Origin: Candidatus Dojkabacteria bacterium | Lineage (GTDB): Bacteria > Patescibacteriota > Dojkabacteria > B142 > JAFGMG01 | DNA length: 64,000 nucleotides | Assembly: GCA_016927655.1 (NCBI GenBank) | Contig: JAFGMG010000005.1 | Span: forward strand, 75,991 to 139,990 | Direction: 5' to 3' | Shown: piece after piece, positions 12,619-29,587 of the stretch | How positions within the stretch are numbered: position 1 is the first letter of the stretch | Layout: each line of letters opens with the position of its first letter | Made by a program: the position numbers and the translations under genes | Notes under the pieces: model-generated | The model's input: the letters and a program-made list of their open reading frames with translations, nothing else | Database searches by the model: none | What the model was told of the DNA's origin: nothing

Positions 12619-15600
12619 TCATGGATTGCAGCTGCCGACAAATACACCATTCCCAAGTGTTGCATATTTCTCAATCCTGGCTGGCTTTGTGATGTTTTTA
12701 AAGATAGCATCATTTGTATGGATTTCGTATATTTCCCCTGTTTTTAGTATTTGTGTAACTTCAGATGTCTTTGGGTTGTAAAGTTTATGATCAGAATCAG
12801 TTTCGCAGTCCAAAGTGATAATTTCAATGGTTTCGCCTTTGATCCTGCTGGCAGGTGCGGCCTGAGCCACGCTTTGCGACGGCCTGGTGGACTGGTTATC
12901 TGGAATTTTATCAAAACCCAGATCGACAAGCGTAGTCCCCATCATCACAAGGGCAAAGGCAAGTCCGAAAGCTGCGGTCGGGTCAAACTTTTTAGTAAGA
13001 GTATCCACAAAATCATACAATGTTTTCATAAGAGACAATCCGGCCAGAACGTTTTTCAGAACATCAACATTTCCTAGAAGTTTATCGATTGCAGCACCGA
13101 TTTGTGAGCCGATGTATGAAATAACGGATCCCAATGCCACACCAAACAAAGGGGTTCCAATAATTGTTCCAATAAATCCTCCTGTGATGCCGCCTATTAT
13201 TCCTCCTGCTACCATAAATGTTCCAATTGGTGTCCCGGTAGCGTATGCGATTGCTATGCCAATACCAGCTCCGCTCAATGTTCCCAAGGCTGCAGCTCCG
13301 AGGTTGATCCCTTGTATGGCCGCCATGGCGCTGATCCCTCCGTATATGCCGCCGACATTAAATCCGAGTTCAGCACCCTTTAAATAATTTAGCCAGGATT
13401 TGAGATGAGTTGGAGACCAGTTTGCAGAGAAATAATCCAGTCCTTGGGCGCGCATTGCCGAGAGCTGACTATTGATCCATGGTGCTGCCGTTGCCAGGCC
13501 GACAAGTTCCATAAATGGGAGCTTGCCAAGTGCCATTAGCGTTGAACTTGTTGCAATTTTTGCAGACGCATTGACGGCGAGTCTCCCTGTTAGATATCTT
13601 GCACCAAGTGCTGCTCCCCCAGCAGTCGCTCCGGCTGCCAATGCAACCAATGGACTTGCGCCGAGCAATGCGGCAATAGCTGCTCCGCCGGCGAAGCCGT
13701 AAAAACCGGTATTTAGTGAACGGGCAAAGGTATACCCTCTTGTTGTTAGAGATCTAGAAGCGCTTAATCCTTGCTGTAAGCGCATTTCTTTTCCGAGAAC
13801 ACCGTGAGCTTTCTGAAAATCAGCAATTCTTCCAAATGGGCTGAGTTTTGTTGAATTTAATGTATCTGTGGTTAATTTCAACGCGGCACCTGCTCCACCA
13901 CTCAAAGCAGCGGCAGCAAGAATTGCTGGTGTCCCACCGCCCATCGCAAGTGCGAGTCCTGCGCCAATTGCACCGTATCTAAGCCCAGAGCCAGTTGCTC
14001 TTGCGAGTGCGCGAACCCCGTTTAGTGCTCTTTGAGCACCGATCAAGCCCTTTCCAACAACACCTCCCATTATCCGGGTTTTTGTATTGGTAATTGAGTT
14101 TGATAAAGCCTTAGCGCCGTTATTGAGGGTTTTCAAACCGCTCATAGTATATGCTCCATTCTGTACTATGCGTCTAACATTATTCAATGTATTGAGAATT
14201 TTACCCAAATATGCCTTTGCTCCAACTCCTACAGCCAGTAGTGTTTTTGATTTGGATTTACTTTTTCGCTCCTCATATTTTTTCTTGAGATTGATTGTTC
14301 CTAAATCATTGTAAAGCCGTTTAATACCAAGACCGCTAAAAGCTTTTCTTTGCGGCTGATACCTTTTGTATTTGACATCTCTGTCAAGTTTTCTGCTAAT
14401 CCTGTCTCCGATGCTTTCGTCAATTCTTGCCAATCCATTTCGAAGACGCCTCGGAAGAATGCTTATCTGCCGTCCTTTCTCGAAAGTCCATCTGCCAAGT
14501 CTTGTTTTTCCTGTCCATTGAACTATTCTGCTGGTTGCTATAGATCTGCCGATTCCCGCAACACCTTTTCTTCCAGCTCTACCGATAGCTCCTACTCCCC
14601 TGCCAGCTTGTTTCCCTAAAAACATAGTACCTTGTCCGGCTTTTCTGGGAAGATAGCCTAGTCCTGTCCTATAATACTGTCCTTTTCTACTCTCGTAGTC
14701 TTTTTTCCTGTTGCTGTACCAGTCCCTGATATTTACTTTTTCTTTCTTTTCGATCTTCTGCTCCCAAATGTTTTTCCCCTGTTTTAGCTCTTTTCTTGTA
14801 GCAGCGGCGCGTGCTTTTGCCCGTTCAAGTAGCATCTTGTCTGCCATTTCGCGAACCTGGTCCTGTGTCATCTCGTTTGATACAGAATTTAGAAGTCCAT
14901 AAGTTGACTGTAAATTCTTGATAGCTGCAGCTGCGTTTGGGTCGTCACTCTTTGCTAGTCTTGCCAGTGTGGTGCTATACGCAGCCTTTAGATTCTGCGG
15001 GGTTGCTTTATCTTTATTAATGCCGATTACATCATACGGATTGCTCCTCTCTCTTGCGATTTTCCTGACGTCCTCTTTTGAAAGATCTGCAGCAAAGTCA
15101 AATCCGCCTTGGATCAAGTCCCTTTCGATAAGTTCGCTATTGGATTGAGGCTTGATTGTTTCGGGTTTGTATTTTTGCAGATCCGGTCCCACCTGGTCAG
15201 CCATTCTTCCTAGTCTTTGTTCTGATTGCTCCAGATATCTCGCCTGATTTTGAAGTGTTGCGAATTTTTGTGCCTTTTGCTTACGGATCTCTTCTGGGGC
15301 AGCGTTTGGCTGGTTTTGGGAGAGTTTTTCGACAGCCTGAGTATAGCTCCCGAACTCCTGTTTGATCTTATTATACTTGTTTAATTCTTCCAGGTAAGTC
15401 AGATTTCTCTCCAATACTGCTTTTTCTCTTGTAAGTTGCTCTTTTCTATTTAAAATTTGTTCTCGTATGCTCGGATTCGCTTTTGCCCCGGCAAGTTCCA
15501 AATTGTTCTCAAGGGCTGCTATCTGGGTATTTAAATCTTGAAGCTGCTTTGGTAATTGCGTTTCTTTTGGTTTTGGAGGAAGGTTGGTTTCCTGTTCACT

Positions 15601-16068
15601 TGGCTTTATACTCTGTTGCTCTTCTTCTGGTGACTGTTTTTGAGGTTTAGCCTTTTTAGACCTCCTGTCTGTCCCTTGTCTTCTTAAGCGGGGTATTCTG
15701 GGAACTCTTCGGTTTTCGGCTACAACATCGTCATCTCCGCCGCCGCCGCCGGTTTGTTCTTTTGGTTGTTCCTCTTTAACTTCATTTTTAGACTCAGCCT
15801 CTTTTTGTGCTTCAATAAGTTCCTGTTTTGTCTGCGTGATCTCTGTTTCGAGACTTCTAAGTGTTTCCCGGTCTGTAATATTTATCCCCAGGCTTGCCAT
15901 AACTCCAGCTGTATTTGCTGACGGGTCTGAGACAACCCGCTCGATTTGATTCCTGATAGCTGATATTCTAAATGCACTAATTGTGGGATTTTGTCCACGT
16001 AATGCCTCCTCCACTCTATCGAGTAATTTATTAATATTTGGTTGTGCTTGTGCTGCTGGCAATGCCAT
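12619..16068 (-). CDS. Giant protein (1149 aa) with an N-terminal coiled-coil half and a C-terminal glycine-zipper hydrophobic half (tape-measure-like); function unknown
   Basis: The long ORF has coding-like composition. A charged coiled-coil region spans aa 1-460. Repeated G/A-rich amphipathic or TM segments span aa ~470-1060 (GAIGAGLALAMGGGTPAILAAAALSGGAGAAL...). A small ~80-aa soluble C-terminal domain ends it. Confidence 0.75.
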   Translation of the reverse strand: MALPAAQAQPNINKLLDRVEEALRGQNPTISAFRISAIRNQIERVVSDPSANTAGVMASLGINITDRETLRSLETEITQTKQELIEAQKEAESKNEVKEEQPKEQTGGGGGDDDVVAENRRVPRIPRLRRQGTDRRSKKAKPQKQSPEEEQQSIKPSEQETNLPPKPKETQLPKQLQDLNTQIAALENNLELAGAKANPSIREQILNRKEQLTREKAVLERNLTYLEELNKYNKIKQEFGSYTQAVEKLSQNQPNAAPEEIRKQKAQKFATLQNQARYLEQSEQRLGRMADQVGPDLQKYKPETIKPQSNSELIERDLIQGGFDFAADLSKEDVRKIARERSNPYDVIGINKDKATPQNLKAAYSTTLARLAKSDDPNAAAAIKNLQSTYGLLNSVSNEMTQDQVREMADKMLLERAKARAAATRKELKQGKNIWEQKIEKKEKVNIRDWYSNRKKDYESRKGQYYRTGLGYLPRKAGQGTMFLGKQAGRGVGAIGRAGRKGVAGIGRSIATSRIVQWTGKTRLGRWTFEKGRQISILPRRLRNGLARIDESIGDRISRKLDRDVKYKRYQPQRKAFSGLGIKRLYNDLGTINLKKKYEERKSKSKSKTLLAVGVGAKAYLGKILNTLNNVRRIVQNGAYTMSGLKTLNNGAKALSNSITNTKTRIMGGVVGKGLIGAQRALNGVRALARATGSGLRYGAIGAGLALAMGGGTPAILAAAALSGGAGAALKLTTDTLNSTKLSPFGRIADFQKAHGVLGKEMRLQQGLSASRSLTTRGYTFARSLNTGFYGFAGGAAIAALLGASPLVALAAGATAGGAALGARYLTGRLAVNASAKIATSSTLMALGKLPFMELVGLATAAPWINSQLSAMRAQGLDYFSANWSPTHLKSWLNYLKGAELGFNVGGIYGGISAMAAIQGINLGAAALGTLSGAGIGIAIAYATGTPIGTFMVAGGIIGGITGGFIGTIIGTPLFGVALGSVISYIGSQIGAAIDKLLGNVDVLKNVLAGLSLMKTLYDFVDTLTKKFDPTAAFGLAFALVMMGTTLVDLGFDKIPDNQSTRPSQSVAQAAPASRIKGETIEIITLDCETDSDHKLYNPKTSEVTQILKTGEIYEIHTNDAIFKNITKPARIEKYATLGNGVFVGSCNP

Positions 16069-16082
16069 GCGTATTTCTCTAA

Positions 16083-17273
16083 TTATAGAAAGTATTTATC
16101 CATCCTAAACCCACTTGTGCTAAAAACAAGCATGTCCTTTAGTGCCTGTTCACTCATTGTGAATTTGTAATATTCTTTTATTCCCTCAAGAAGAACTCCG
16201 GCGTTTGTAATGCTTTGGATCTCTAAAGTATATTCATTGCCTTCTTCGAGCTGTTCGTCTTGAGTTGCTTCTCGAATCTTTGAGGTGAAGAAATTACCGG
16301 GTCTAATAGCTTGTTCTATAATCACTTCGGTGAGTGCAATGAAAATGTGCTTATAAAAGTCATCTAAAGTCTCTTGATTGATTTTTGGATTGAATTCTCG
16401 TAATGAATCCAAGAGTTCTAGGACATATAATTCCATAGACATATCTTCGCGTGCTCTAAAGACGACCAGTTCTTCAAGCTGTCTTTTTTGAGCCATATCA
16501 ACTATCTGAGCAAGAGCATTGTTTTTGGCGTCTATTGGAGAAATTCCCCTTTCGATGTCACTATATGCAAGATGCATTAAATTATCAAACACTCTTTGTA
16601 TTAATTCTTCTGCAATTTGTTCGATTTGCCTACCTTGATTTATTACAAAAAAGGCTCTTTCTGGATAGTATTTAAGTTTGTTTGCTAACAGGCTATTTGA
16701 GTAGTTGAGTATGCTCAGGCCGGCGAGTTTTGATTTGATCAGATAAAATTTATTCTCGAAATTTATTGTCTCTTTGATGTCTATTTCCCCTTTTTTATCA
16801 ATTAGCACGGCGTAAGGGAGATCGACTTTAATTGTCTGCTTCAGATCCGTTTCTTTTATTCCCAGCTCTTTATATTGGGCCTTTTGAGCTTCGGTTTGGG
16901 GCGGGATGAAAAACTCTATTGCGTATTCAGCAAGTTCGGGAAGTCCCTGGTCCCATCTGGACTGGAAGTAGCTGCTGATTGTCTGAAGCCAGACTCTGGT
17001 AAGTTCAGATATATTTTCTTTCTCAAATTCAAGTACCGGGATTGAAACTGCCTCGTTTTTGGTGTTTTCCAGTACAGCTTTTATAAACTGGTCGATGGCG
17101 GCCTTGTTTTTTCTATATGTTTTTTGAAATCGTTTTTCAAATTTTGGAAGAAAGTTTTCGATTTCAAAATCAAAGGAGGTCGGACTTATAAATACAAAAG
17201 CTGATCTGCCTAATTTTTTGTAGGTCTGTTCATATAATTGATCGATTTGTTGTATTTCTTGAATATCGGACAT
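16083..17273 (-). CDS. Hypothetical soluble protein (396 aa)
   Basis: Long ORF tightly spaced with its neighbours (14 nt from the upstream gene). No recognisable motif. Confidence 0.55.
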   Translation of the reverse strand: MSDIQEIQQIDQLYEQTYKKLGRSAFVFISPTSFDFEIENFLPKFEKRFQKTYRKNKAAIDQFIKAVLENTKNEAVSIPVLEFEKENISELTRVWLQTISSYFQSRWDQGLPELAEYAIEFFIPPQTEAQKAQYKELGIKETDLKQTIKVDLPYAVLIDKKGEIDIKETINFENKFYLIKSKLAGLSILNYSNSLLANKLKYYPERAFFVINQGRQIEQIAEELIQRVFDNLMHLAYSDIERGISPIDAKNNALAQIVDMAQKRQLEELVVFRAREDMSMELYVLELLDSLREFNPKINQETLDDFYKHIFIALTEVIIEQAIRPGNFFTSKIREATQDEQLEEGNEYTLEIQSITNAGVLLEGIKEYYKFTMSEQALKDMLVFSTSGFRMDKYFL

Positions 17274-17302
17274 TTCATGTTTATCGTGCTTGTTGTTATC
17301 TC

Positions 17303-19108
17303 TTATTGTTGTTTAGCTTTCGGTCTATCTGTCCAGGCATCATATCGGCCTTTTGCGACTTTATATAGTGGCTGGGTTCCGCTTGCCAGACCAGATCGAA
17401 GAGAACCGGCAAATACTGTTTTGGCTTGTTCTTTCTTGAATTCTGCTGGTGTTGCAATTGCTTTTTCAAGGAAGTCCGGGATCATTGGTGTTGAAATAAA
17501 CAGTCCAAAGGCAATAAGATTTTTGATAAATTGTCCGCTGACTGCCCCGCCATCCCCAACTAATCTGGCAGTATTGGCCCCTATCAGAGAAGGGCTGTAA
17601 CCAAAATTGATTCCAAAGTTTAGATCGTTTGTTAAGACAATCATAAACAGAAATATTGCATAAACTGCAACAAATGTGAGAGATGCAGCAAAGAGTGTTC
17701 TAAAGTAGTTTGTTACTGCTTTCATTCCCTGTCCAGGAATAGCAATTGTCAACATAATAAATGGTGACACTATCGGGTAAAGTGCCAGGACAAGGTATTT
17801 GCTGACCAATTTCATAAATAGCTTAATACTTGCCATAAATGCGGCAATTGCAAGAACAAGGGTGAATAAAAGACCGATTAGTTTATCTGCTCCAGCAGCG
17901 TCTGCCGCTTCAAGTATTCTATCAAGTGCATTCACGACAGTATTGTTTGTCTGATCATTATCTGGAACAACCTTATCAAGTGCAATGCTTCCCTCATTCA
18001 CTCTAATATTTGCAGTCCCGAATACCCCCCATACACTCATTGCATCATCATCTGGCTGGAGGTGGTATTTGACCGGGTTGTTTGCGTCACCCAGGGTTGG
18101 ATTGTACTCAAGATCTGCTTTAAAAGCAGGTACATTTTCGAGTATTTCTAGTTTGTCCTGATCGGTTGCATCTACAAGTTGATCTATGAGTCCATTGTAC
18201 TCTTCTTGGTTTAGGCCAAGTGCGTCAGGTGTTGCATCGCTAACTACTTGTCTGAGTGTCTCGATGGGCGCATTTAGCGGGTCTATTGGGTGTGTGGTTA
18301 TACTGGTAGCATTCCACAGATCATATCCCGGTGACCAGGTATTTTGTACAAGCACCTGCTGGGTGACATTTGTTCCAATTGTAATGAAATCTATCGCAAG
18401 TCCTGAAAGTGCATAACTCAAAGTGATCATAATTAGAGCAATCACTATGTTTGGTATGGAATTCGCTATTGTTACCTGGGTTTGGCCCCCAAATGAGCTT
18501 CTAAACAAAACCATCAAGGCAACGATAATTATAATTATTATCATCGCAGCGTAAGCAATATTTCTAGATACTGCCCAGTAATCAGCTATCGGGTTTAAAA
18601 TTTCAAACCCCAGTCCGGGGTAGTAAATCCACGAGTCTTCTGGTGCGGCATAAGCGGTGTTTCCTGTGGTTAATTTGCTCCATTCGTTTTGAGCATAAGT
18701 AATTCCGCTTGCCGGAGGGTTTGCGTATAATTGTGCATTGAGACCGACGATACTTTGTATTGCGCCGGGTTTATAAAATGTAATAGGTTCCCCATTGTCA
18801 TCTAAAAGCAGTTCGCCGGTATTGCTGTCTATGACATTGCTTTTTCGTTTTACAAGAAATTTGAGTCCTAATTCGACCATTTTGACTCCAATACCTGTAA
18901 TTTCTTCATTACAAACTTGGGTGTCCGGGTCACACATGGTTGTGCTATCGAGCAGGTAATCCCCTGCTGCGGATTCGGGGACTGTGCTTTCAGTCAGGGT
19001 GTAGTCTGACGTTTCGTCGACGACCACAGCTTCAGCGTCGGTTGCAAATGTCAAAAACGACGTGGCAACAGTCGTAATCAAAAGAACCACAAGCAGTATT
19101 TTTTTCAT
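17303..19108 (-). CDS. Polytopic membrane protein with a signal peptide (601 aa); TrbL/VirB6-like topology, tentative
   Basis: A cleavable-looking signal peptide (MKKILLVVLLITTVATSFLTFATDAEA) leads into a ~150-aa exported N-domain. At least 6 hydrophobic helices follow, then a hydrophilic C-terminal tail. The VirB6/TrbL call rests on topology only. Confidence 0.55.
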   Translation of the reverse strand: MKKILLVVLLITTVATSFLTFATDAEAVVVDETSDYTLTESTVPESAAGDYLLDSTTMCDPDTQVCNEEITGIGVKMVELGLKFLVKRKSNVIDSNTGELLLDDNGEPITFYKPGAIQSIVGLNAQLYANPPASGITYAQNEWSKLTTGNTAYAAPEDSWIYYPGLGFEILNPIADYWAVSRNIAYAAMIIIIIIVALMVLFRSSFGGQTQVTIANSIPNIVIALIMITLSYALSGLAIDFITIGTNVTQQVLVQNTWSPGYDLWNATSITTHPIDPLNAPIETLRQVVSDATPDALGLNQEEYNGLIDQLVDATDQDKLEILENVPAFKADLEYNPTLGDANNPVKYHLQPDDDAMSVWGVFGTANIRVNEGSIALDKVVPDNDQTNNTVVNALDRILEAADAAGADKLIGLLFTLVLAIAAFMASIKLFMKLVSKYLVLALYPIVSPFIMLTIAIPGQGMKAVTNYFRTLFAASLTFVAVYAIFLFMIVLTNDLNFGINFGYSPSLIGANTARLVGDGGAVSGQFIKNLIAFGLFISTPMIPDFLEKAIATPAEFKKEQAKTVFAGSLRSGLASGTQPLYKVAKGRYDAWTDRPKAKQQ

Positions 19109-19157
19109 GCGCGTACTACATAAATTGCTTAGACAAAAACAGTATAGAGAGTAAATG

Positions 19158-19607
19158 TTAGGAGTGCAAGGGTAGATTCTTGTGCATCTTGATCAGGTCA
19201 TTGTAGTCATCGATGACTTGTTGGATATCCTCTTCTCCAATTCCGTGGCCTTGCATTATCATTTCTATGTCGTTTTGGTGTAGTTCTTTTACAATATCAT
19301 TTGAAGCAGAAATGAATCTGAGTAAGTAGTAATTCAGCAAAACGTACGTCGAATCATTATCTATTGTTTTGACGATAAATGCGCCAAGTTCAAGCATATC
19401 GGGATTTGTGCCGTGTTCTTCTGTGAATTTTTTGAGTTCCTCGATATCGAGATTTAGATCAAATGCTATTTTTATTACTTTGAGCAGATTTTCTCCGAAA
19501 AGCTCCGCAAAGCCATCTTCTGATATGTGGAAATACTCGTACTTCTCAATGTACTCGGTAGTAGTTTCGAAAAGTTTTTTGAATAAGTCTTGTTTTTCTT
19601 TTGGCAT
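19158..19607 (-). CDS. Hypothetical small acidic protein (149 aa)
   Basis: ORF in an operon-like arrangement with 17303..19108 and 19680..20315. No motif. Confidence 0.45.
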   Translation of the reverse strand: MPKEKQDLFKKLFETTTEYIEKYEYFHISEDGFAELFGENLLKVIKIAFDLNLDIEELKKFTEEHGTNPDMLELGAFIVKTIDNDSTYVLLNYYLLRFISASNDIVKELHQNDIEMIMQGHGIGEEDIQQVIDDYNDLIKMHKNLPLHS

Positions 19608-19679
19608 AATCAGAAATGCTTTGCTTTTTTAAATAATATAGTCAGGGTCAGATTTTCTAGCCATGTTCTTTTGTGGCTT

Positions 19680-20315
19680 TTAACGTTCAGGATCGACTTT
19701 TGCTAGCAAGCCATTCAATATATTGCCATATTGATTCTTATAGCTGTCAAATTTATCCTCTTGTTTGGTAGTATCAACAGTGAGCTTTGCGCCAACCATT
19801 GAAACTAGCGGTACAGTCCACGACAATCCTTTTGCCAATATTTTCCACATTGTCCTTCCCAGCCAGGTTTTTTTCTTATCTGCACCTAAAAGATTTTTGA
19901 TATGTTCGTAATTATCGTTTGTTTTTCCTTCTACTCTGACTTTTTGTTCTGCCATATTTAATGTTTCTTGAAGACCCCCATTTTTAAAATCGTCAATTGT
20001 CTCGTCAATTTGGTCATGGATATAGTTTTCTGTTAGTATGCCAAACTCCTCTGTCTGCATCATGTCAAAAGAAGCATCTCCAACTCTTTCTGCCAATGCT
20101 TGACCACGATTGGAAATAAATCTTCCAATCAAACCAGGCTCCTCTGCCCCAGTTAGTCCTGCACTTTCTAAGTCCTCTTGGTATCGCTTATATGCATCTT
20201 CACTCATATTCTGCTCCATCCATCTTTGAGCGCCACCTACGAATTTACCCGCGAGGTATTTGCCTACTAGCCCTGCTTTTGTTGTTTCATCGGCTGTTGC
20301 TGCTTCTGTTGACAT
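19680..20315 (-). CDS. Hypothetical protein (211 aa)
   Basis: ORF with coding-like composition; no motif. Confidence 0.45.
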   Translation of the reverse strand: MSTEAATADETTKAGLVGKYLAGKFVGGAQRWMEQNMSEDAYKRYQEDLESAGLTGAEEPGLIGRFISNRGQALAERVGDASFDMMQTEEFGILTENYIHDQIDETIDDFKNGGLQETLNMAEQKVRVEGKTNDNYEHIKNLLGADKKKTWLGRTMWKILAKGLSWTVPLVSMVGAKLTVDTTKQEDKFDSYKNQYGNILNGLLAKVDPER

Positions 20316-20453
20316 ATTTATTGAGTCAAATCATTAATTATGCCGAAATTATATACAAATAATTTTAATAAAGCAAAGTGTGCTTGATTTTGATTTGAAA
20401 TTCGTTGATAATGATTTTTGTAATTAATTATGGTATAAATATCAAGGATAGAT

Positions 20454-20723
20454 ATGAGTGGGCAGCAATCAGCAGCACAAGTATTGCAAAGTTTAGCGGA
20501 AGGGGGCACTGACGCTGTAGTGAGCAGCGAAGAGCGGCAGTACAAAATGGTCGAAAATGGCAGACGTGTGCCCAATCCAGTAATGAGAGCAGCTGCAAAG
20601 CAATTGAAGGAAAAAGGCTTCAGCGATGCAGAAATAGTGCAAAAAATCCTATTTTTCGACGAACTCGCCGAAAAAGACCAGTTGATAGATTATTTAAATA
20701 AGCAGGAAAAAGAGAAGAAATAA
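20454..20723 (+). CDS. Hypothetical small protein (89 aa)
   Basis: Short ORF immediately upstream of, and abutting, 20726..23014. Confidence 0.35.
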   Translation: MSGQQSAAQVLQSLAEGGTDAVVSSEERQYKMVENGRRVPNPVMRAAAKQLKEKGFSDAEIVQKILFFDELAEKDQLIDYLNKQEKEKK

Positions 20724-20725
20724 TT

Positions 20726-23014
20726 ATGGCAATACCAGGACAGCCAGGACAACCAGGACAACCAGGACCAACTGAAGCTATGCCACTTGGGGAGAGGAAT
20801 ATACAACCTGCTCAACAAGAAACTGCTGCAGGAGATAGTGTTGGAACTCCAGATGATCTTGCGAATTTGCTGGCCGGGAAAGAGGCTAGAACACAAGTAC
20901 AACCCCCACCAGTAGAAAATATTGAATATACAGAGGAGCAGAAAAGGAGAGATGAACTCAGGCCACAGGCCGATAAGGCTTTGGAAACTATTAGAAAAGA
21001 CATTTCATCAGAAAGATTTATTGGGGAAGCTTCTCCTCAGTTAGAAAAACTACAACGTGAGATAGATCGATTGAGCAATCTGCCAAATCCAACTCATGAA
21101 GATATAGAACAACTAGAAGGAGCCCTAAGTAGATATGACAATATAAAAGAGACGGCAGAAGACGGCGGTGAGAGAATAAGAGGAGATGCCTTTCAATCTA
21201 AAAAGTATGATTCGGGAGAAGGACAAGGTGGAGGACTTGATGAAGAGGAGAAGTCTTTCTCGCAGCTGATGAATGATTTTGATGATGCAGTTAGGGATGG
21301 AGATGTGGATTTGGCTAGGAAGTTGTTGCGCCAAGCTAATGGCAGTAAGGGATTCAATTCTAGACAGTATGATAATATGAGAGGTGATTACAGGGATTTG
21401 GAAAGAGCTACAAAAGCAGAAAAAAAGGCCGCTGAGGAGAAAGAAAAAGCAGACAAAGAGACTGCAGCTAAGAGGAGAGCTAACAATATTGTTTTGGATA
21501 TCGAAGAGAAGCCTAACCCAACAGCTAATGATACTAGGCAAGCTTTAGATGATATTGCTAATCTGGAAAATTTGCCTGACGAGCAACGTGAAAGTGCTAT
21601 GAGGAGAATTCGAACTGTTGATAATGCGAGAAAAGAGAAGGAGCGAAAGAGTCAGGAACGTAAAGTTGATAGAAACTTTCAATTGGAGAGGAATAATAAA
21701 TATATACAAGACGTTCTTCTCTCTCCAGATGGTATCAGCGTGGAAGACCAACGGGAGGCTTTTTATACAGCACAAGATATGGGAACTATTCCAGAAGATA
21801 AAAACTTTGATCAAGAAGTTCTTGATCCTATAAGAAGACAAGTTGAAGCAAGTGTGGTAGGGAAATATTCAGCAGGTGATTTGGCTAATCCGAATGCGGC
21901 TAAGGGGGAGTTAGATGCTTATGTTGCAGGTGGATATATTGAACAAAATGAGGCGGATCGAATAATGGGAAAAGTTTATGAAAGACAGGTGAGAATGGTC
22001 GACGAGTTATTGGCCAGGGAAGCTCGGGGAGAAGCCATCAAACTTGAGGATATTAAAGATGAAACCGTAAAAAAAGAATTTGAGAAGCGAGCAAGACAGC
22101 GAGCTGAAAAAAGTCCGGCAGTTTCGGATTTAATGGAGAAAGCAAAGAAGTTTATGAAGGGCAAAAGAGGGCTTGCTACAGTAGATTGGGTGAAGGGTAA
22201 TTTGAAAAAAGAATTAGCGAATTTAAGTCCAGTAGAAAAGCAAGTTGCAGAAGAGCAATTGAATGAATACTCACAGATGATGACGGAGTTGGATAAATCG
22301 ACAAGGGAATTGATTACAGAAAGTGGCGGGAACGTTTCAATCCCCGGAGTAGAAGGGGGTTCAAAGGAAGTAAAATATGATTTATTGAATATTGACGCTA
22401 TAGTTGCCAAGTTGAATCTTTCTGATTCGGCAAAAGCAAACATTAAAGAAGAGCTGAAAGCAGAACAACGAGTTAGAATTGCTGAAATGAAGATGCGTGC
22501 AAGAGAAGCTGCAGTGGCAATGGATAAACAACGTCGTGCAAATCTTGCATTACAATTAAGCAAATTGAAACATTATGGTACGGCATTAGCGATATTTGCT
22601 ATTCCTACAATTGGTCCGGGCTTGTTATTGGGCGGAGCTGGATTTGCTGCGGGAGGGATTGGTCTTGGACTTTTAGCAGGAAGTTTTACCGGTTCTTTAG
22701 CTTTGCTTCCAGCAGGAGCAGCAACATATATTTATGATCGATATTATGGGAGACGAAAAATAGATGAAATGGAATTGCAAGTTGATAAGGAAAAATTAGC
22801 GCTAGAAAAAGCGGAGAAAGAGATTAGAAGAATTGTTGCAGATGCTAGCTTGTGGTCGCGTGAGAAAGCTGCTGCCGCTTATGCAGCACAGACGGGCAAG
22901 GATGTAAATGAAACAATACAAACATATATGCAACTTACAAATGTGGATACGATTTCAGTTTTGAGAAGGGATCTAAACGCTAGTGCGGCTAGTCAATTTG
23001 CTGCGGCTGCTTGA
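20726..23014 (+). CDS. Coiled-coil protein (762 aa) with an N-terminal PGQ x3 repeat and a C-terminal glycine-zipper TM segment
   Basis: It opens MAIPGQPGQPGQPGP, followed by ~550 aa of charged coiled coil. A G/A-rich TM region (ALAIFAIPTIGPGLLLGGAGFAAGGIGLGLLAGSFTGSLALLPAGAA) and a ~110-aa tail close it. Confidence 0.7.
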   Translation: MAIPGQPGQPGQPGPTEAMPLGERNIQPAQQETAAGDSVGTPDDLANLLAGKEARTQVQPPPVENIEYTEEQKRRDELRPQADKALETIRKDISSERFIGEASPQLEKLQREIDRLSNLPNPTHEDIEQLEGALSRYDNIKETAEDGGERIRGDAFQSKKYDSGEGQGGGLDEEEKSFSQLMNDFDDAVRDGDVDLARKLLRQANGSKGFNSRQYDNMRGDYRDLERATKAEKKAAEEKEKADKETAAKRRANNIVLDIEEKPNPTANDTRQALDDIANLENLPDEQRESAMRRIRTVDNARKEKERKSQERKVDRNFQLERNNKYIQDVLLSPDGISVEDQREAFYTAQDMGTIPEDKNFDQEVLDPIRRQVEASVVGKYSAGDLANPNAAKGELDAYVAGGYIEQNEADRIMGKVYERQVRMVDELLAREARGEAIKLEDIKDETVKKEFEKRARQRAEKSPAVSDLMEKAKKFMKGKRGLATVDWVKGNLKKELANLSPVEKQVAEEQLNEYSQMMTELDKSTRELITESGGNVSIPGVEGGSKEVKYDLLNIDAIVAKLNLSDSAKANIKEELKAEQRVRIAEMKMRAREAAVAMDKQRRANLALQLSKLKHYGTALAIFAIPTIGPGLLLGGAGFAAGGIGLGLLAGSFTGSLALLPAGAATYIYDRYYGRRKIDEMELQVDKEKLALEKAEKEIRRIVADASLWSREKAAAAYAAQTGKDVNETIQTYMQLTNVDTISVLRRDLNASAASQFAAAA

Positions 23015-23061
23015 TACTAGAATAGTGAATTTAGTTTTTGTTTAGAATTTAGAAAAGTAAT

Positions 23062-23748
23062 ATGCCTACGACAAGTTATCTGATCGATCCGAATACAATA
23101 TCGATGCTTTTACAGATAGATGATGATACTGTTATTGAAAGCGAAATGCAGCAGTACTACTCTATCATTGACAAGGTTATGAAGGCTGGTGTGATTGACT
23201 ATATGGAAAGAAATAAATATGACGAAGATGAAAAAGAATTGATCAAAAAGAAGATGGATACTTATATATCCGAGCAGAATGAAGAGCTCAAGACAGACAA
23301 AATGCTCAAGACCTTTCTATCAAGCGAAGATTTGCAGAAGTTTCTTGCAGAGTTGATTAACCAGGTAAACAAAAGCTACTATGAGCAATATTATCCAAGA
23401 CTGGATCAGGCGAAACAGGATGAACTAGCCGATTATATTTTTGAAGCGCATCAACTTGAAAGGCAGACTGCAAGGCATATATTGAGTTTACTGGATTTTG
23501 TTGATGAAAAGAAAGTAGAAGAAGCTGTCAGGCAGGCAAAAGAGAATCCGCCGCAACCACAAACATCACAACAAGAATCAGTAATAGAGCCAATTGAGGA
23601 TAATGTGCTGACAGATGATTCGGGTACTTCTGAAAGTTCAATACAGCAGGCTCCTCAAGTTCAACCAATACAGCAAGAACAGCAACCAGAACAACCGCCA
23701 GCCCAGCCAACTCCTACTCCGCCGACGGTGAATCTTTCTCAGAGCTGA
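23062..23748 (+). CDS. Hypothetical protein with a Q/P-rich C-terminus (228 aa)
   Basis: ORF with a low-complexity QQEQQPEQPPAQPTPTPP tail. Its 3' end overlaps the convergent 23714..24208 gene by ~35 nt. Confidence 0.45.
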   Translation: MPTTSYLIDPNTISMLLQIDDDTVIESEMQQYYSIIDKVMKAGVIDYMERNKYDEDEKELIKKKMDTYISEQNEELKTDKMLKTFLSSEDLQKFLAELINQVNKSYYEQYYPRLDQAKQDELADYIFEAHQLERQTARHILSLLDFVDEKKVEEAVRQAKENPPQPQTSQQESVIEPIEDNVLTDDSGTSESSIQQAPQVQPIQQEQQPEQPPAQPTPTPPTVNLSQS

Positions 23749-24208
23749 GAAACTCATCAACAGTCTTTTTACCGAAACGTTTCTCCAGATTTTTCATAAT
23801 TTTCGGATATTCCGAGGCCTGCCTGATTTTTTCCATTAGATAATCGATTATTTCAAAGACGTCTTCTTTTGGCCCATCACCGATAAATCTGAAGAAAATC
23901 GCATTGTCGTATTCTTTCATCACATCCCTTGTTTCCTGCTCCAGATCATCGTATGAAGCCAGAAATAATTTTATCTGATCAAGTATGACCTTCTGCCCTT
24001 TTACCCGCTCCTCGACATTTTGCGCCTCGAACATTTTATTTATCTCCTCCATCCTGTCCGGTTCGTGTTCAGCGATATAGCCGACAATATGAGACATCAA
24101 AAACCTGGAAATAACATCATAATAATTGGCAATAAACGCCTCCTGTTCTGCAGGAGAAAACCCCATAGATTTCGTAATGATTTTTAGAGCAGTTTCATCC
24201 AAAAACAT
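23714..24208 (-). CDS. Hypothetical protein (164 aa)
   Basis: ORF directly upstream of, and co-oriented with, the 1784-aa gene. No motif. Confidence 0.45.
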   Translation of the reverse strand: MFLDETALKIITKSMGFSPAEQEAFIANYYDVISRFLMSHIVGYIAEHEPDRMEEINKMFEAQNVEERVKGQKVILDQIKLFLASYDDLEQETRDVMKEYDNAIFFRFIGDGPKEDVFEIIDYLMEKIRQASEYPKIMKNLEKRFGKKTVDEFLSSEKDSPSAE

Positions 24209-24232
24209 AATTCAATTATAAATTGTTAAATT

Positions 24233-27200
24233 TTAGAGTTCCGGCGGTTTGCTTGCTTCTTTAATTCTCTCTTCAAGCATTTCGAACATTTGTCCTGTTT
24301 TTTTGAGAACTAGATCATCAGTCGGATACCAGTCATCCGGTTCTTTGGTCGCTGCCAGATCCTCAAGCCAGAAAGTGATAACTTCAGTATAATATCTCAT
24401 TGTGGACAAATCCTGCTGCTGAGGGATCTCTCCTTGAAGTGCTGCCTGGAAAGCTCCAGCCATGGAAGTGGCATCTTTATATTTTTCTATAGCTTTTATT
24501 CTTCTTGTGTGCCATTTCTTTGCATTTTTTACAGCAGCCGGTTTGGCAAAGCCTCTAAGACCTGCTCCAGACATTACTATAAAAAGCCCTATCGGAGTTC
24601 CGGTCAATGCAGATGCAATTAATCCACCCACCATCATTTGGTTGGTCAGTCTTGTAAGCCATTTTGCAATACCTTTGTAGTATCCGGCTTTTTCGTAGCC
24701 TATACGTTCGTATTGGCCGATTTTTCTAAGTGCCATCAACCATTGATCCATCATATTCTGGCCATGCTCGTATCTGCCTCTAAAAGTGTCAATCCCTTTG
24801 GCAAGCATATCCTGCATTGTGGTAACTTCCTTAATAGGTCTTGGTCCTATTGCGTCCAGTTCCCTTCTATAAGGACTCGTCCAAGAAGGCTCTTTATAAG
24901 TTTTAAAATGCATAATATTTTCAAAATATGCGTCTTGTCCTCCGTGATTAGGACCAACTATTGCTTCTACTATTTTTGAAATATCTTCATGAGTAACATC
25001 AGGTTTATTTAAGGTTTCTTCAATAGCCGGCCATTTTGGATGTGGTATTCCTGAGGAAGAAGGCGGATAAAAGTTCATAGCAAGTCTTTTTACGTAATTT
25101 TTAAATGCAGTTGTGGCAAATCCTGAAGCTGCATCAAAAGTATCGTGGGTGTGTTTAACGCCCGTTGCATCTGTAAATGTAAATTGGGGTCTAAAATCAA
25201 TTAAATCCTGCCCTTCTTTTGTCCTGTGCATTTTATATCTTCGATCTGGCGGGAGACCTTTGACAAGAACGTCTTTCAAAACTTCGATCTGCATCCCGAG
25301 AAGAGCGTCTTTGACAGCGTCTGTTCGAAGCAGGACATTTTCTTCGTCAAAACCTTCGTCGATGTTTTTATTGCCGCCAAACCAGCTTACTGCTTTTCCC
25401 TGCCCACAAGCGGAGTTCAGCCTGATAAATCTAAGGTGCGGGTTCAATCTGTCTCCAACAAGCCTGCCCCAGTATTTTTGAACTTCGAGCATTCTGGCTC
25501 TGCTTTCATCCTCGTCTTTACTTAGCCAGGTTGTGTTTAATTGAACAACGCCATCCTTGATAATGAAATCACCACCGCCTTCGTACATCTTCTTTTCTTT
25601 ATTCCACCTTGCTTCTTTTAAAAGGACAGGTATCAGGTTCCCATTTTGATCAACTAATCTTTCTCCTGGTCGCACAGTGATAGTTTTAACTTGCCCCCTT
25701 TCTTTAAATGTTAATTTAACATCTTCATCTCTTGTATTTACAGCCCAGGCTCCTGCGTCCTGGCCTCTTAGCTCCTCTGCAATATGAATCATATTGACCA
25801 TGCTGTAGAGTGCATAATCTTCACGTATTGGATTTCCGTGTTTGTCCTTTCCTATTACTTTTTGTGCAAAGTGATCGTGCTCGTCTTTTAGTGTCATGTA
25901 GGCTAGATAGCCGTCTCTTGAATTGAGGAATTTTTTGAATTCTTTACCAACCTGGTCTCTCCAGCCGATCTTTTCAGCATCCTGTCCGGGTAGTCTTGAT
26001 CTAGTGACATACTTTTCATAATATTCACCGGCAGCTTCCTGCAGTTTTCCCGGCTTTTGAGCGATATACCTTCTAAGCGGGTTGACCATTCGAAGAAATC
26101 CCCGCCCGGATCCCATCCAAGGAGTGATGTCTCTTTTTACTTTTATCCCAAAGCGTCTGACCTCTGTTTTCCCTTTATCGTGTTCTTTGTATGTGAATTT
26201 CTCTCCACCTGGCACTAGAACTTTTTCGGCGTCTCCTCTGAAATTCCTAGAAATAAAGTTTAAAAATTCATGACCTCTTAGATCTTTAAAAAGGTAGGGG
26301 TCCCCTGCTGCTTTAGTACGTAGTTTAGCGAGTTTATCAGCACCTAGTATGTCTTTTTTGTCAACTACATCAGCAACGATATCCCTTGTACTTCGCATTT
26401 TGTCCTCATCTCTTTTGAATTTATACTGATTGGTCATAGGGTCAAAATCGAATTTTGATCCCATGAGTTCTCCCAGTATTCGCAGACGTTTAATTTCTCC
26501 AACACCTCCTTGACCTAAAATTTCGGCCATCCAGGCAAGGCCTTTTTTATGGGTAAATTCCTCGATATCCATTTGCAGACTTACCGGAGTCCTATCTCTT
26601 CCTTCTTCGATTCTGTAGGCATTTTGAATGCCTGGTAGATATTGTTTGAAAAGTCCCTCGTACTGGGTATTGAAATATTTAAAATATTTCGCAGGGTTTG
26701 CTCCAAGATAATCCGAGCCCATATAGTATTTACCAAGATCCCTGAGGCGCGGACTTTTACTTCTTGCAAGGCGCGCTCCTATACCCCTTCTAAATTCATA
26801 ATTTGTAAGCATAGGCCACGGGACCGGAACACTCCCAAGCAAGGTCGAGAATCTCCGCATTCCCGGGATCAAGTATCTAAGGGGGATAGCCCTGGCATCG
26901 ACATTGTATTCCCAGACATCATAAAATGCAGTGCCCTCACCTCCATATGTTGGCGGCGGCTTATCGCGGCCAATATACATCCCTCTTTGTATAGCTTCCT
27001 GATAGCCGGTGTTCATTGGTGAAGTGTCATCTCCAAGAGGTCCGATAAGCGGCTCTAAACCTGGGATTGCTGCATACTTATATTTGCCGGTTCTAAGGTT
27101 TTTGATTGCAGCAGACCTTTGTTCTTTGGTGCCGGCTCTTCCTGCTTCGTGATACATGTTTTCTGGATTTATCTGCGGGAGTCTATCCAGACCATATTTG

Positions 27201-29587
27201 CCGGCTAGAGCCAGGATGTATTCCATATTGATCCCCTCCATGCCAAAAGCCTGAATTTGACCAATAATATCCATGGCTAATTGGCTCCGAATCAAATCGT
27301 CGGTATTCATTGCATCATAAGTGTCAGCTCCAGCTTCCAGGGTGTTTTTATTGATTATTGCTTCAAGAGTCTTGGCAAGCAGGAACATATTCTCTCTTTG
27401 CGAGACATTTGCACTCTCTCCTGCTTGAGGTTCAAGCAGATATAGATCCTGCAGGTCGATTTTTGTTTTGCCGTCAATTTTGTGATCAAGCAGTTTTGAG
27501 ACAATTTCACGCATTGCCTCTGCTTCTTTTGATTGATCTCCATCGGGAAATAAAATTGCATCAAAAAGATAATCCTGCTGCTCGTGGGCAAGAAGAAGTG
27601 CCTGCTGCTTGAGATAGTCCGCTCTGTCCGGAAGTACTAGAATATTTACCGAAGGCATTGCTCGCTCATGAAATTTTGCGCTGAAAGCACGGTTAAAATT
27701 TTCCAGCGAAGACTCTTTGAATGTTAACCCAAGTCCATTTTTTGCGGCACTTCCAAGATCGACCCCGAATTCTTTCATCAAGGCTTCAAGTTTGTCTTTT
27801 ATTGGACCTTCCGCACCTCCTGCAGTATAAGTATTGATAGAAATTGTCATACCGGTGTTTGTCGGGATTACTTCGACAATCCCTGCATCATATAGTTCAT
27901 TTAAAACTTTGGAATCTGTAGAAATGTCTTTTCCGACAGCCTCGAGAACGTTTTTTACCGCGTCTCTGTTGATTTTCCCGTCAACGTCTTCTGGCAGGAT
28001 TTGCATAGTTGATGAATATTGATTTCTGATTTTTCGTGCTTTTGCAAGCAAATCGTTAGTGTCTTTACTGACACTTACACCTCCTTCTACTGATTTCAGC
28101 TCCCAAACCCCGCGCTCGTTTCTAAAGGCAAATCCATAGCTTGAAAGTGTCTCGTATAAATCATCTTCTGTATAATCCTCGGTATCAAGCATTTGAGCTT
28201 TCATCATGAAATCTTCTCTAACGGCAGCCATTCTCTCAGCGACTGGTCCTTCAAGTCTCCATCTTTCAAATTCTTCAATGTCTTGTAAAACCTCTTCTTC
28301 AGTATCAAGAGATGTTCTGGTGGCCGGATCGATTTCTCCTCTTCTTTCCGCGTTCATAACCTTGAGTCTGCCCACGACTTCCGGGTGTGAAAGGGTTTCG
28401 ATAAGCTGCAATTCGCGCTCGGTCAATGCAAGTGTACGGATTTGCGCCTGCCTTTGATCTTGTGTCATACCAGTCAGATTCAGCCCTCTTAACTTCAAAA
28501 ATAGAGAATTTATTTCCGGCTGGCTGCTGATAATCTTCTGCCATGTTGAGTATTCTTTGCCGAGCATTTTTGTCTGGGAGTCCCGGACCATTTCTCGAAG
28601 TATTTTTCCTTCTGTTGAGCCTAGTACTTCCAGCACTTCTTTTGTTTCGGTCCCGCCGCTCTCCGTTGTTGTTTTTATTTTCGTTTGGGCAAGAAGTGAA
28701 AATTGTTCAACCAGAAGTCCCTGCTTTACGACTTTGAGTTGTTCTCGGTCTTCATCTGTTAATTTCCTGTCTTTTTCTATACGATTTGTGATTTTCCCGA
28801 TTTTTCTATGATTTGCTACACGTTTGAGTCCGATTGTCTTCTGATCCCAGTTTTCAGGAAGGAGTCCTTCTTTTCTTGCCTTTTCGATTTGCGCAGCTCT
28901 TGAAAGAATATTGTCTATCTCCCCGGTTGGCCCATCCGCTAATTCTTTGGCTGATAATTGTTGTTTTGAAATTTTAGCCAGTTCCTGCTGTTTCCAGGCG
29001 AATTTTTCCTTACTCTCTCCAATGATTTCTTCAAGAAGTTCGAGTTCAACTTCCTCGCCTTCGGCTAATTTACCTTGACTTTTCTTTCTCTCCAGGGCTG
29101 CTTTACTCGCTTCCAATGCTCTGTGAGCCTGTTCGTGGATTCTAAGAGAATCTTCCAGAGCTTTTGCTCTTAGAGCTTCACCGTAGCCATCGAGATTGAA
29201 TTTTCTAAATAACCTTTCGGCAGCGACTTCGGCTTCAAAACCCAGCTGCATTGACGATTTTGTTTCACTGGCCCGGTCATCAAGGAGAATTTTTGCTTCG
29301 ATATTCGTTAGAAGTCTTTTCGCAAGTCTTTCGTAGTGTTCTCTTTTGGGTCTGTCTCCGGCTTTTAGAGCAGCGCCCTCGGCCGTTTTTTTTCTTGATT
29401 CACGGATTTTTCGGAGTTTTTCGGCTAAACGGCTGCTTCTATCAGTCTCTGATGTCTTTTTGATCTGTTCTGTGCGAGTTTGAGCTTCTTTCTTTTTTTT
29501 CTCCTTTGCTTCTCTCGCCTTTTTCTGATCTTCAGACTCACTGACTTGTTCGGGGCTGTCTTGTTCGGAAGTAAGACCTTCAAACAC
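24233..29587 (-). CDS. Giant protein (1784 aa) with an N-terminal K/E-rich coiled-coil region and a glycine-rich TM segment near the C-terminus; function unknown
   Basis: Uninterrupted 5.3-kb ORF. The first ~500 aa are highly charged coiled coil. The central ~1100 aa show no recognised catalytic motif, and no Walker A was found. The TM segment is MMVGGLIASALTGTPIGLFIVMSGAGL at ~aa 1650-1680. Confidence 0.8.
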   Translation of the reverse strand: MFEGLTSEQDSPEQVSESEDQKKAREAKEKKKKEAQTRTEQIKKTSETDRSSRLAEKLRKIRESRKKTAEGAALKAGDRPKREHYERLAKRLLTNIEAKILLDDRASETKSSMQLGFEAEVAAERLFRKFNLDGYGEALRAKALEDSLRIHEQAHRALEASKAALERKKSQGKLAEGEEVELELLEEIIGESKEKFAWKQQELAKISKQQLSAKELADGPTGEIDNILSRAAQIEKARKEGLLPENWDQKTIGLKRVANHRKIGKITNRIEKDRKLTDEDREQLKVVKQGLLVEQFSLLAQTKIKTTTESGGTETKEVLEVLGSTEGKILREMVRDSQTKMLGKEYSTWQKIISSQPEINSLFLKLRGLNLTGMTQDQRQAQIRTLALTERELQLIETLSHPEVVGRLKVMNAERRGEIDPATRTSLDTEEEVLQDIEEFERWRLEGPVAERMAAVREDFMMKAQMLDTEDYTEDDLYETLSSYGFAFRNERGVWELKSVEGGVSVSKDTNDLLAKARKIRNQYSSTMQILPEDVDGKINRDAVKNVLEAVGKDISTDSKVLNELYDAGIVEVIPTNTGMTISINTYTAGGAEGPIKDKLEALMKEFGVDLGSAAKNGLGLTFKESSLENFNRAFSAKFHERAMPSVNILVLPDRADYLKQQALLLAHEQQDYLFDAILFPDGDQSKEAEAMREIVSKLLDHKIDGKTKIDLQDLYLLEPQAGESANVSQRENMFLLAKTLEAIINKNTLEAGADTYDAMNTDDLIRSQLAMDIIGQIQAFGMEGINMEYILALAGKYGLDRLPQINPENMYHEAGRAGTKEQRSAAIKNLRTGKYKYAAIPGLEPLIGPLGDDTSPMNTGYQEAIQRGMYIGRDKPPPTYGGEGTAFYDVWEYNVDARAIPLRYLIPGMRRFSTLLGSVPVPWPMLTNYEFRRGIGARLARSKSPRLRDLGKYYMGSDYLGANPAKYFKYFNTQYEGLFKQYLPGIQNAYRIEEGRDRTPVSLQMDIEEFTHKKGLAWMAEILGQGGVGEIKRLRILGELMGSKFDFDPMTNQYKFKRDEDKMRSTRDIVADVVDKKDILGADKLAKLRTKAAGDPYLFKDLRGHEFLNFISRNFRGDAEKVLVPGGEKFTYKEHDKGKTEVRRFGIKVKRDITPWMGSGRGFLRMVNPLRRYIAQKPGKLQEAAGEYYEKYVTRSRLPGQDAEKIGWRDQVGKEFKKFLNSRDGYLAYMTLKDEHDHFAQKVIGKDKHGNPIREDYALYSMVNMIHIAEELRGQDAGAWAVNTRDEDVKLTFKERGQVKTITVRPGERLVDQNGNLIPVLLKEARWNKEKKMYEGGGDFIIKDGVVQLNTTWLSKDEDESRARMLEVQKYWGRLVGDRLNPHLRFIRLNSACGQGKAVSWFGGNKNIDEGFDEENVLLRTDAVKDALLGMQIEVLKDVLVKGLPPDRRYKMHRTKEGQDLIDFRPQFTFTDATGVKHTHDTFDAASGFATTAFKNYVKRLAMNFYPPSSSGIPHPKWPAIEETLNKPDVTHEDISKIVEAIVGPNHGGQDAYFENIMHFKTYKEPSWTSPYRRELDAIGPRPIKEVTTMQDMLAKGIDTFRGRYEHGQNMMDQWLMALRKIGQYERIGYEKAGYYKGIAKWLTRLTNQMMVGGLIASALTGTPIGLFIVMSGAGLRGFAKPAAVKNAKKWHTRRIKAIEKYKDATSMAGAFQAALQGEIPQQQDLSTMRYYTEVITFWLEDLAATKEPDDWYPTDDLVLKKTGQMFEMLEERIKEASKPPEL

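Follow-up and report, generated by a model that had tools for sequence, protein, structure and literature searches.

A lineage-specific gene cluster of Dojkabacteria encoding three unrelated large proteins of similar architecture, and its possible relation to type IV secretion

The DNA discussed here, referred to as the window, is a stretch of 64,000 nucleotides from the genome of an uncultivated, ultra-small bacterium (Candidatus Dojkabacteria), that is, from the Patescibacteria or candidate phyla radiation (CPR). Positions 12619-29587 (about 17 kb) hold a cluster of ten genes, none of which (0/10) belongs to a Pfam family. Three of them encode the very large proteins A, B and C, in which an earlier note, made from the DNA letters, had seen one recurring body plan of long coiled coil, Gly/Ala-rich transmembrane (TM) zipper and short tail. 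The three open reading frames (ORFs) exist as that note gave them (12619-16068, minus strand, 1149 amino acids (aa); 20726-23014, plus strand, 762 aa; 24233-29587, minus strand, 1784 aa), and the proteins A and C are 100% identical to JW978_02180 and JW978_02225, which are annotated at NCBI as hypothetical proteins of a Candidatus Dojkabacteria metagenome-assembled genome (MAG, 144-kb contig). Word-index homology searches with A and C found no protein besides the query. The genes and their principal features are as follows.

12619-16068, minus: protein A, 1149 aa, from ORF and translation
12622-12831, minus: C-terminal β domain of A, residues 1080-1149 (pLDDT 75-89)
12913-13980, minus: membrane domain of A, residues 697-1052, from hydropathy, Hessa-scale sums and motif scan
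14869-15051, minus: J-like domain of A, residues ~340-400, without HPD
16083-17273, minus: o396, soluble acidic protein, pI 4.9
17303-19108, minus: o601, N-terminal hydrophobic segment (possible signal peptide) and about six strongly hydrophobic predicted TM helices
19158-19607, minus: o149, small acidic protein, pI 4.6, directly downstream of o211
19680-20315, minus: o211, hydrophilic, with a short amphipathic/hydrophobic stretch near the C-terminus; first gene of its operon
20454-20723, plus: f84, 89 aa, directly upstream of B
20726-23014, plus: protein B, 762 aa, from translation
22571-22735, plus: uncharged Gly/Ala-rich hairpin of B, residues 616-670 (55 residues), with K/R on both flanks
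23062-23748, plus: o228, pI 4.3, small acidic protein encoded after B, of the family that in other genomes intervenes between big2 and o601
23714-24208, minus: o164, small acidic protein, pI 4.7, directly after C; its orthologues always follow a C-like gene
24233-29587, minus: protein C, 1784 aa, from translation
24557-24649, minus: uncharged segment of C, residues 1647-1677 (31 residues), with a central G-[TS]-P

The region 12619-29587 is a single conserved chromosomal gene cluster, lineage-specific to the Dojkabacteria (Patescibacteria/CPR). When the contigs of o601 homologues were fetched, synteny of the whole region extended to at least eight further contigs of Dojkabacteria type, in the order C-like gene (1660-1780 aa), o164-like gene (155 aa), a variable block, f84 (84-89 aa), big2/B, o228-family gene, o601, o396 and A-like gene, followed by He_PIG, SBP, DUF3048 and o410. 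This order recurs in the loci L001, L002, L006 and L010-L015, and the He_PIG, SBP, DUF3048 and o410 genes flanking A in the window are those found beside A-like genes elsewhere. Scans with the o601 alignment added two loci from GTDB genomes and three from JGI metagenomes. In the window one operon runs o211-o149-o601-o396-A, the block f84-B-o228 (20454-23748) has the opposite orientation to that in every other Dojkabacteria-type locus, and the o228 and o164 genes are convergent with 3' ends that overlap by 35 bp. Divergence was calibrated by the identity of each cluster and flank protein to its orthologues, which is 60-70% for DUF3048, 52-66% for SBP, 40-50% for o601, 32-42% for both o396 (9 loci) and C, 30-35% for o164 and 28-33% for A (8 loci); for B, o228, o211 and o149 it is below BLASTP detection.

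According to Pfam, the flanking ORFs encode CTP synthase, a Mur ligase, a response regulator, PFOR subunits, a form II/III-type RuBisCO and CysRS, and a tRNA and Rfam scan of the window gave no match. Because of these housekeeping flanks and the identity to Dojkabacteria MAG proteins, the region belongs to a Patescibacteria chromosome and not to a phage. None of the ten cluster proteins had an above-threshold match in Pfam, NCBIfam, PHROGs or PADLOC; in PADLOC A, B, C, o396, o601, o211, o149 and f84 were without match, and o228 and o164 gave noise-level matches only. An anti-phage defence system was rejected, since no PADLOC model matched. In addition, a Walker A motif is absent from A, B, C, o396 and o601. 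In the literature searched, no paper describing these families or the locus was found, and A, B and C are orphan families confined to a few CPR lineages.

From its N-terminus, protein A runs through a charged stretch, the J-like domain, a basic region and a polytopic membrane domain rich in Gly/Ala to the β domain at the C-terminus. The J-like domain matches Pfam DnaJ (PF00226) with an E value of 0.0022 and 18.5 bits (gathering cut-off, 27.8 bits), while a profile of ten A orthologues finds mostly J-domains as its best matches in the PDB (DNAJA3, E 3.9e-4; Sec63 lower), and in the alignment SDDP or a similar string takes the place of HPD. The domain is therefore called J-like and not a canonical J-domain: the Pfam score is sub-threshold and HPD is missing, yet the profile finds J-domains. 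The membrane domain is the best-conserved portion of the A family and comprises at least six marginally hydrophobic Gly/Ala-rich segments, several of them of a helix-G[TS]P-helix type, with GxxxG runs. The β domain of about 70 residues follows an S/T/Q-rich linker and bears two conserved Cys at its ends in a DC...G.C pattern, which suggests an extracytoplasmic, possibly disulfide-bonded domain. Foldseek gave for it weak barrel-sandwich-type matches only (prob 0.8, E above 1). The AlphaFold2 (AF2) model of residues 560-1149 is unreliable except for the last 70 residues, so the transporter matches that Foldseek returned for it were disregarded. An exhaustive HMMER search with the same residues against 1.84 billion representative proteins gave 13 matches, all A-like. 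Three remote A-like proteins (P0044, P0045 and P0046; 751-1144 aa, about 21% identical) have in common with A a G[IV]P[IL]GP motif and the membrane domain with its Gly zipper, and carry another C-terminal domain.

Protein B begins with a PGQ repeat; after it come a charged region, a two-helix hairpin rich in Gly and a tail that is again charged. The PGQPGQPGQPG string that the earlier note had pointed out at its N-terminus is present and is encoded by CCAGGACAR three times. Among orthologues the B-type uncharged stretch varies from 23 to 55 residues. In other genomes the corresponding place is taken by big2 (688-1307 aa), which has a Gly-rich hairpin 120-150 residues before its end. Comparison of B with big2 by hhalign gave 31.5% (E 5e-4), in the hairpin and tail only, and f84 precedes and an o228-family gene follows B, as with big2 elsewhere. 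B is thus the positional orthologue of big2 and evolves fast. The f84 protein is present in four to five other genomes (orthologue HMM, E 1.2e-30); a minus-strand ORF at 20318-20575 that overlaps it is probably spurious.

In protein C a charged N-terminal region (about 300 aa) leads into a large conserved domain, after which come the 31-residue uncharged segment and a conserved tail of 108 aa. From about residue 730 onward, some 1,000 residues align with orthologues as a conserved, apparently globular region, and the family profile matched nothing in Pfam or the PDB. The uncharged segment is exactly 31 residues long in all five orthologues (5/5), and its flanks contain 4 and 5 K/R per 15 residues. 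The first 30 residues of the tail are very basic, and the tail includes a conserved WLEDL..TK.PDDWYP motif.

The large genes are accompanied by genes for small acidic proteins. A large gene followed by a small acidic one occurs in three pairs, B-o228, C-o164 and o211-o149, and the pI of the small partners is 4.1-5.0 in most members. In other genomes a gene of the "mid" family is followed by one of the "sm145" family, to which o149 is positionally analogous. Comparison by hhalign gave 96.4% (E 1e-9) for p211 against o228, and 11-18%, collinear, for the o164 family against p211 and o228, so that o228 and o164 may be distantly related. The profiles of the o164 and o396 families found nothing among PDB sequences, and o396, which always stands between the VirB6-like gene and A, is also without a Pfam match.

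The recurrence of one architecture within one locus is real, though the plan holds loosely. The Gly/Ala-rich strings quoted by the earlier note (GAIGAGLALAMGGG, GGAGFAAGGIGLGLLAG and MMVGGLIASALTGTPIGLFIVMSGAGL) were found in the proteins. A, B and C have no N-terminal hydrophobic signal, their sole hydrophobic segments come late in each protein, the position of these segments is kept in the orthologues of all three, and the tails after the last segment measure 97 residues in A, 92-94 in B and 107-108 in C. The individual elements of the plan fared unequally. Of the "hundreds of residues of coiled coil", the charge is confirmed (35-53% K/E/Q/R/D in the N-terminal parts), but the heptad periodicity is patchy. 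In a crude heptad scan with block-shuffled controls, 2-4% of windows were positive against 1% in the null, in patches of 28-130 residues (A 61-101 and 166-299; B 90-118, 171-198 and 503-534; C 16-72, 181-209 and 258-292). Residues 101-200 of A contain 11 prolines. The designation "tail-anchored", in the sense of a single TM within about 30 residues of the C-terminus and no signal peptide, is right only in the lack of a signal peptide: the tails have 94-108 residues, B has a two-helix hairpin and A, with at least six hydrophobic segments across residues 697-1052, is to be regarded as polytopic. True C-terminal anchors are seen only in unrelated giants of the distant loci L003, L005, L007 and L016.

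The "transmembrane zipper" is a similar case. The position is conserved and the Kyte-Doolittle 19-mer peaks of A, B and C (1.7-1.9) exceed the cut-off of 1.6, but the hydrophobicity is only marginal: the Hessa-scale sum of the best 19-mer, a simplified and position-independent sum and not the calibrated predictor, is +0.5 to +4.2 kcal/mol in all A, B and C orthologues, whereas the neighbouring polytopic protein o601 has -4.3 to -5.8. The Gly/Ala segments may plausibly insert into a membrane. Since their position (and in C also the length) is conserved, they are considered to be functional elements and not random low-complexity linkers. The earlier note had held that failed TM predictions, or unrelated known families, would refute its idea; the TM call is marginal rather than failed, and the three families are unrelated but are not known ones.

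A, B and C appear at sequence level as three unrelated orphan families which converge on one architecture, and the expectation that they form a family of paralogous architecture was not borne out by hhalign, family hidden Markov models (HMMs) or exhaustive HMMER. Comparison of the family alignments by hhalign gave 0.2% for A and C, 4.9% for A and B and 0.1% for C and B, the best alignments always lying on the hydrophobic segments, and the family HMMs gave no cross-hits. All-against-all BLASTP produced a single weak match, between A and C, with a Smith-Waterman score of 64 (z = 6.5 with global shuffles and about 4 with block shuffles); repeated in three other genomes, the A/C comparison was at chance level (z -1.0 to 1.2). 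The TGTPIG string that drives this match was rejected as the mark of a shared anchor module, as it is not conserved in C orthologues. Moreover, the tails differ, being a linker and β domain in A, a charged region with one heptad patch in B and a region with the WLEDL..TK.PDDWYP motif in C. With no detectable homology, the shared grammar is convergent or at most the trace of a very ancient short hairpin.

The only cluster protein with many relatives is o601, of which 33 homologues occur across the CPR. It has about six helices, where VirB6/TrbL proteins have at least five TM helices, and a large extracytoplasmic loop, and its AF2 model has a pLDDT of 70 overall and of 87-94 in the helical core. 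NCBIfam gave a sub-threshold match to the MMCAP2_0566 conjugal-transfer family (E 2e-5) and a weak one to Mbov_0396, both of which are membrane proteins of mycoplasma integrative and conjugative elements (ICEs). Among the membrane-protein matches of Foldseek, TrwI/VirB6 had the top probability (0.35), with no significant PDB match, and tblastn of o601 against plasmids gave no match. On these sub-threshold similarities o601 is described as VirB6-like in character. According to a review, the CDS16 membrane protein of mycoplasma ICEs is the likely VirB6 analogue (PMC12857230).

The gene neighbourhood of the distant o601 homologues points to a type IV secretion system (T4SS). In L003, L005, L007 and L017, from Roizmanbacteria and other CPR, the homologue adjoins two PF18895 T4SS_pilin genes, and these loci also contain a protein with a weak CHAP match (cell-wall hydrolase), an enlarged ClpB-like AAA+ protein, yidC and rnpA. 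The ClpB-like AAA+ genes (1152-1374 aa) lie at 4914-8762 in L003, 4525-8292 in L005, 4328-7786 in L007 and 2273-6397 in L017, and no VirB4 was seen there. The L016 homologue has a VirB4-like ATPase gene (P-loop_TraG/DUF87/AAA_10) and a TraC-like gene at a distance of about 5 kb, and it is the only, and a distant, o601 homologue with VirB4 within about 20 genes. In the distant loci the gene adjoining the VirB6-like gene encodes a charged giant of 1109-1349 aa without signal peptide and with a hydrophobic segment at the extreme C-terminus (L003 12616-16377, L005 12609-16532, L007 11575-15624, L017 12648-16622 and L016 10428-13757); in L003, L005 and L007 the protein closes after this segment with a few basic residues, for example KKK. 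These giants are unalignable with each other or with A, B and C, and that of L017 cannot be aligned with those of L003, L005 and L007 despite orthologous flanking genes. The cluster families compared by hhalign with the families of the Microgenomatia-type loci (giants, ClpB-, pilin- and CHAP-like, 150-aa and 220-aa proteins) gave nothing.

The published context is as follows. Patescibacterial T4SSs are chromosomal, related to MPF-FATA and relaxase-less (PMC12102498, PMC10633639, PMC11665869). VirB6 homologues are scarce or absent in Microgenomatia and Gracilibacteria, which the authors ascribe to extreme sequence divergence, and the Dojkabacteria-class assemblies located in Table S1 of that survey are marked VirB4-positive (PMC12102498). 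The T4SS is essential for epibiotic growth in Southlakia, the one species tested (PMC10633639), and the role of the patescibacterial T4SS is completely unknown according to reviews (PMC11665869).

From these observations the cluster is tentatively interpreted as encoding accessory or adaptor parts, and possibly cargo, of an envelope machine related to the patescibacterial T4SS. The functional link is drawn from the gene neighbourhood in distant relatives together with the sub-threshold similarities, and the interpretation is supported by the synteny, the T4SS neighbours of o601 homologues, the published context, the architecture and the similar giants in other CPR classes. In such a machine A, o601 and o396 would make up the membrane core, with B and C as giants docked at the membrane and handled by their putative small acidic partners. 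The uncharged segment of C is, with 31 residues, longer than a typical single span and too short for two full spans, and it has a central Gly-Ser/Thr-Pro and is followed by a basic tail, so that a monotopic or re-entrant hairpin is the most economical model. In B and C both ends of the segment would lie on one side of the membrane, and the hairpin would hold these proteins at the cytoplasmic face. Several points weigh against the T4SS interpretation. VirB4, VirD4, VirB2 and VirB3 genes are found neither in the 64-kb window nor in the 20-kb Dojkabacteria loci; the assignment of o601 to VirB6 is sub-threshold on every direct test; by the simple scale applied here, soluble proteins reach hydrophobicity values that overlap with those of the Gly/Ala segments; the AF2 model of the A membrane domain, although all-helical, has a pLDDT below 50 (44); and the o211/o149 pair has no detectable orthologues.

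The first two of these points also favour the strongest competitor, an unlikely one in our estimation, namely that the cluster is an autonomous envelope or cytoskeletal module for membrane shaping, division or attachment-organelle scaffolding and not a T4SS, in which case o601 would be merely a lineage-specific polytopic protein. The syntenic neighbours are surface or uptake proteins (He_PIG Ig-like, SBP and DUF3048), as this explanation would have it, and scaffolds typically involve long, charged, helical proteins anchored in the membrane. Against it, four or five independent loci from other classes have an o601 homologue embedded among genes for T4SS pilin, VirB4 and hydrolase.

Somewhat less probable still is the explanation that B and C, possibly o211 and the "mid" family, and the hypervariable giants beside the VirB6-like gene in other CPR classes are exported transmembrane effectors, whose weakly hydrophobic hairpins would evade the signal recognition particle (SRP), whose acidic chaperones would shield them and which the T4SS would deliver into the membrane of the host bacterium. 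The hydrophobicity of the segments is far below that of the resident membrane proteins of the locus and conserved as such across orthologues, and intermediate hydrophobicity and chaperone shielding are reported features of T3SS and T4SS substrates with transmembrane domains (TMDs) (PMC6110835, PMC12981334). The three pairs of large and small acidic genes, the very fast divergence (B, o228, o211 and o149 below BLASTP versus 52-66% for SBP) and the unalignable giants of L017 and L003/L005/L007 between orthologous flanks are in the same direction, and the relaxase-less patescibacterial T4SS is suspected to be a protein exporter (PMC12102498, PMC11665869, PMC10633639). On the other hand, no secretion signal is known, K/R on both flanks fit insertion into the own membrane from the cytoplasm equally well, A and C are fixed in position with 28-42% identity like machine parts, a T4SS ATPase is absent nearby, and the hydrophobicity was estimated from the simplified sum. 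A more specific and more doubtful version, rather improbable as it stands, is that B, C and the analogous hypervariable giants across Patescibacteria are protein substrates of the relaxase-less T4SS, which the chaperones o228, o164 and o149 would keep soluble and which A, as a J-like glycine-zipper membrane platform, would pass on to the channel.

It is very improbable that A, perhaps with B and C, is a remnant phage tail module (tape-measure-like) or a fixed mobile element: the A-family profile has as its best PDB match the tape measure protein 9ki1_g (E 0.0019, 48 Gly-zipper residues only), one weak Foldseek match of the A β domain is a cyanophage baseplate protein and the helical regions, Gly-rich hydrophobic segments and small C-terminal domain resemble such proteins, but there is no PHROG match, tblastn of A against 50,697 phage records was empty, no capsid, portal, terminase, integrase or tRNA gene and no defence-system match was found, and the genes occupy the same chromosomal site between the same housekeeping genes in genomes whose flanks are only 52-66% identical. 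A prophage or mobile-element origin was thus rejected for want of phage genes and for the conserved chromosomal site, and the view of the earlier note that these are not tape-measure proteins is upheld in a housekeeping, syntenic context. Sec-exported surface adhesins were likewise rejected because A, B and C have no signal peptide.

The window has further features outside the cluster. At 37467-48236 (plus) a 3589-aa protein with subtilase (S8), FG-GAP repeats, DUF6531 and 34 RHS repeats shows a polymorphic-toxin or surface-giant architecture. A protein with the phage-associated BRO-N domain is encoded alone at 31027-32085 (plus) between a cyclophilin gene and the PFOR genes, and two divergent genes at 51970-52770 (minus) and 52829-53623 (plus) encode two proteins (about 265 aa) that both have HTH_3 at the N-terminus and an unassigned C-terminal part. 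The gene at 58995-60410 (plus) encodes a RuBisCO large-subunit homologue; RuBisCO is reported for Dojkabacteria and other CPR lineages (PMC5113843).

The frame into which the cluster fits is probably an already known one, that is, accessory proteins of a secretion-related membrane machine or pairs of TMD effector and chaperone. The analysis brings out the conserved locus itself, with its three orphan giants and small acidic partners in the constant company of a VirB6-like gene, and the recurrence in other classes of a hypervariable giant with a C-terminal hydrophobic segment beside a VirB6-like gene. No substrate or accessory protein of a patescibacterial T4SS has been named so far, and the locus gives concrete candidates. 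If the substrate proposal were true, the essential patescibacterial T4SS would gain its substrates in the form of hairpin effectors inserted into the host membrane; if the T4SS link is wrong, the locus is still a clean case of three unrelated families converging on one membrane-anchoring architecture inside one operon neighbourhood.

The locus may be compared with several known systems. It resembles the patescibacterial (MPF-FATA-like) T4SS loci (Wang et al. 2023, PMC10633639; Quinonero-Coronel et al. 2025, PMC12102498) in being chromosomal and relaxase-less and in having highly diverged membrane components, and in other classes the o601 family stands beside T4SS_pilin, VirB4-like and putative CHAP-hydrolase genes. 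It differs from them in that VirB4, VirB2, VirB3 and VirD4 are not here and in that the components described for them do not include A, B, C, o396 or the small acidic proteins (PMC10633639, PMC12102498). With VirB6/TrbL and the CDS16-type proteins of mycoplasma ICEs, o601 shares polytopy with about six helices, the large extracytoplasmic loop and weak NCBIfam matches, and A joins a polytopic domain to a large hydrophilic one as extended VirB6 proteins do (PMC12857230); however, no o601 score reaches a family threshold and A has no similarity to o601 or VirB6. The phage tape-measure proteins have in common with the giants long helical regions, Gly-zipper segments and the 48-residue match to 9ki1_g, but here three such genes lie in one chromosomally conserved locus without phage context.

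The likeness to TMD effectors with chaperones, such as SseF/SscB and the transmembrane effectors (TMEs) of Legionella, is in the hydrophobic two-helix hairpin with charged, partly helical flanks, the moderate hydrophobicity and the adjoining genes for small acidic proteins. Chlamydial Inc proteins are of a comparable two-helix hydrophobic hairpin type. A, B and C, at 762-1784 aa, greatly exceed these effectors in size and have no sequence similarity to them, and the host is likely a bacterium or archaeon and not a eukaryote. Finally, A couples a J-type helical domain to a membrane domain as the membrane-anchored J and J-like proteins DjlA, Sec63 and Pam16/Tim16 do. It differs in lacking HPD and in scoring below the Pfam threshold, and since HPD is absent stimulation of DnaK is not expected, so that the J-like Pam16 is the closer parallel to this domain of A.

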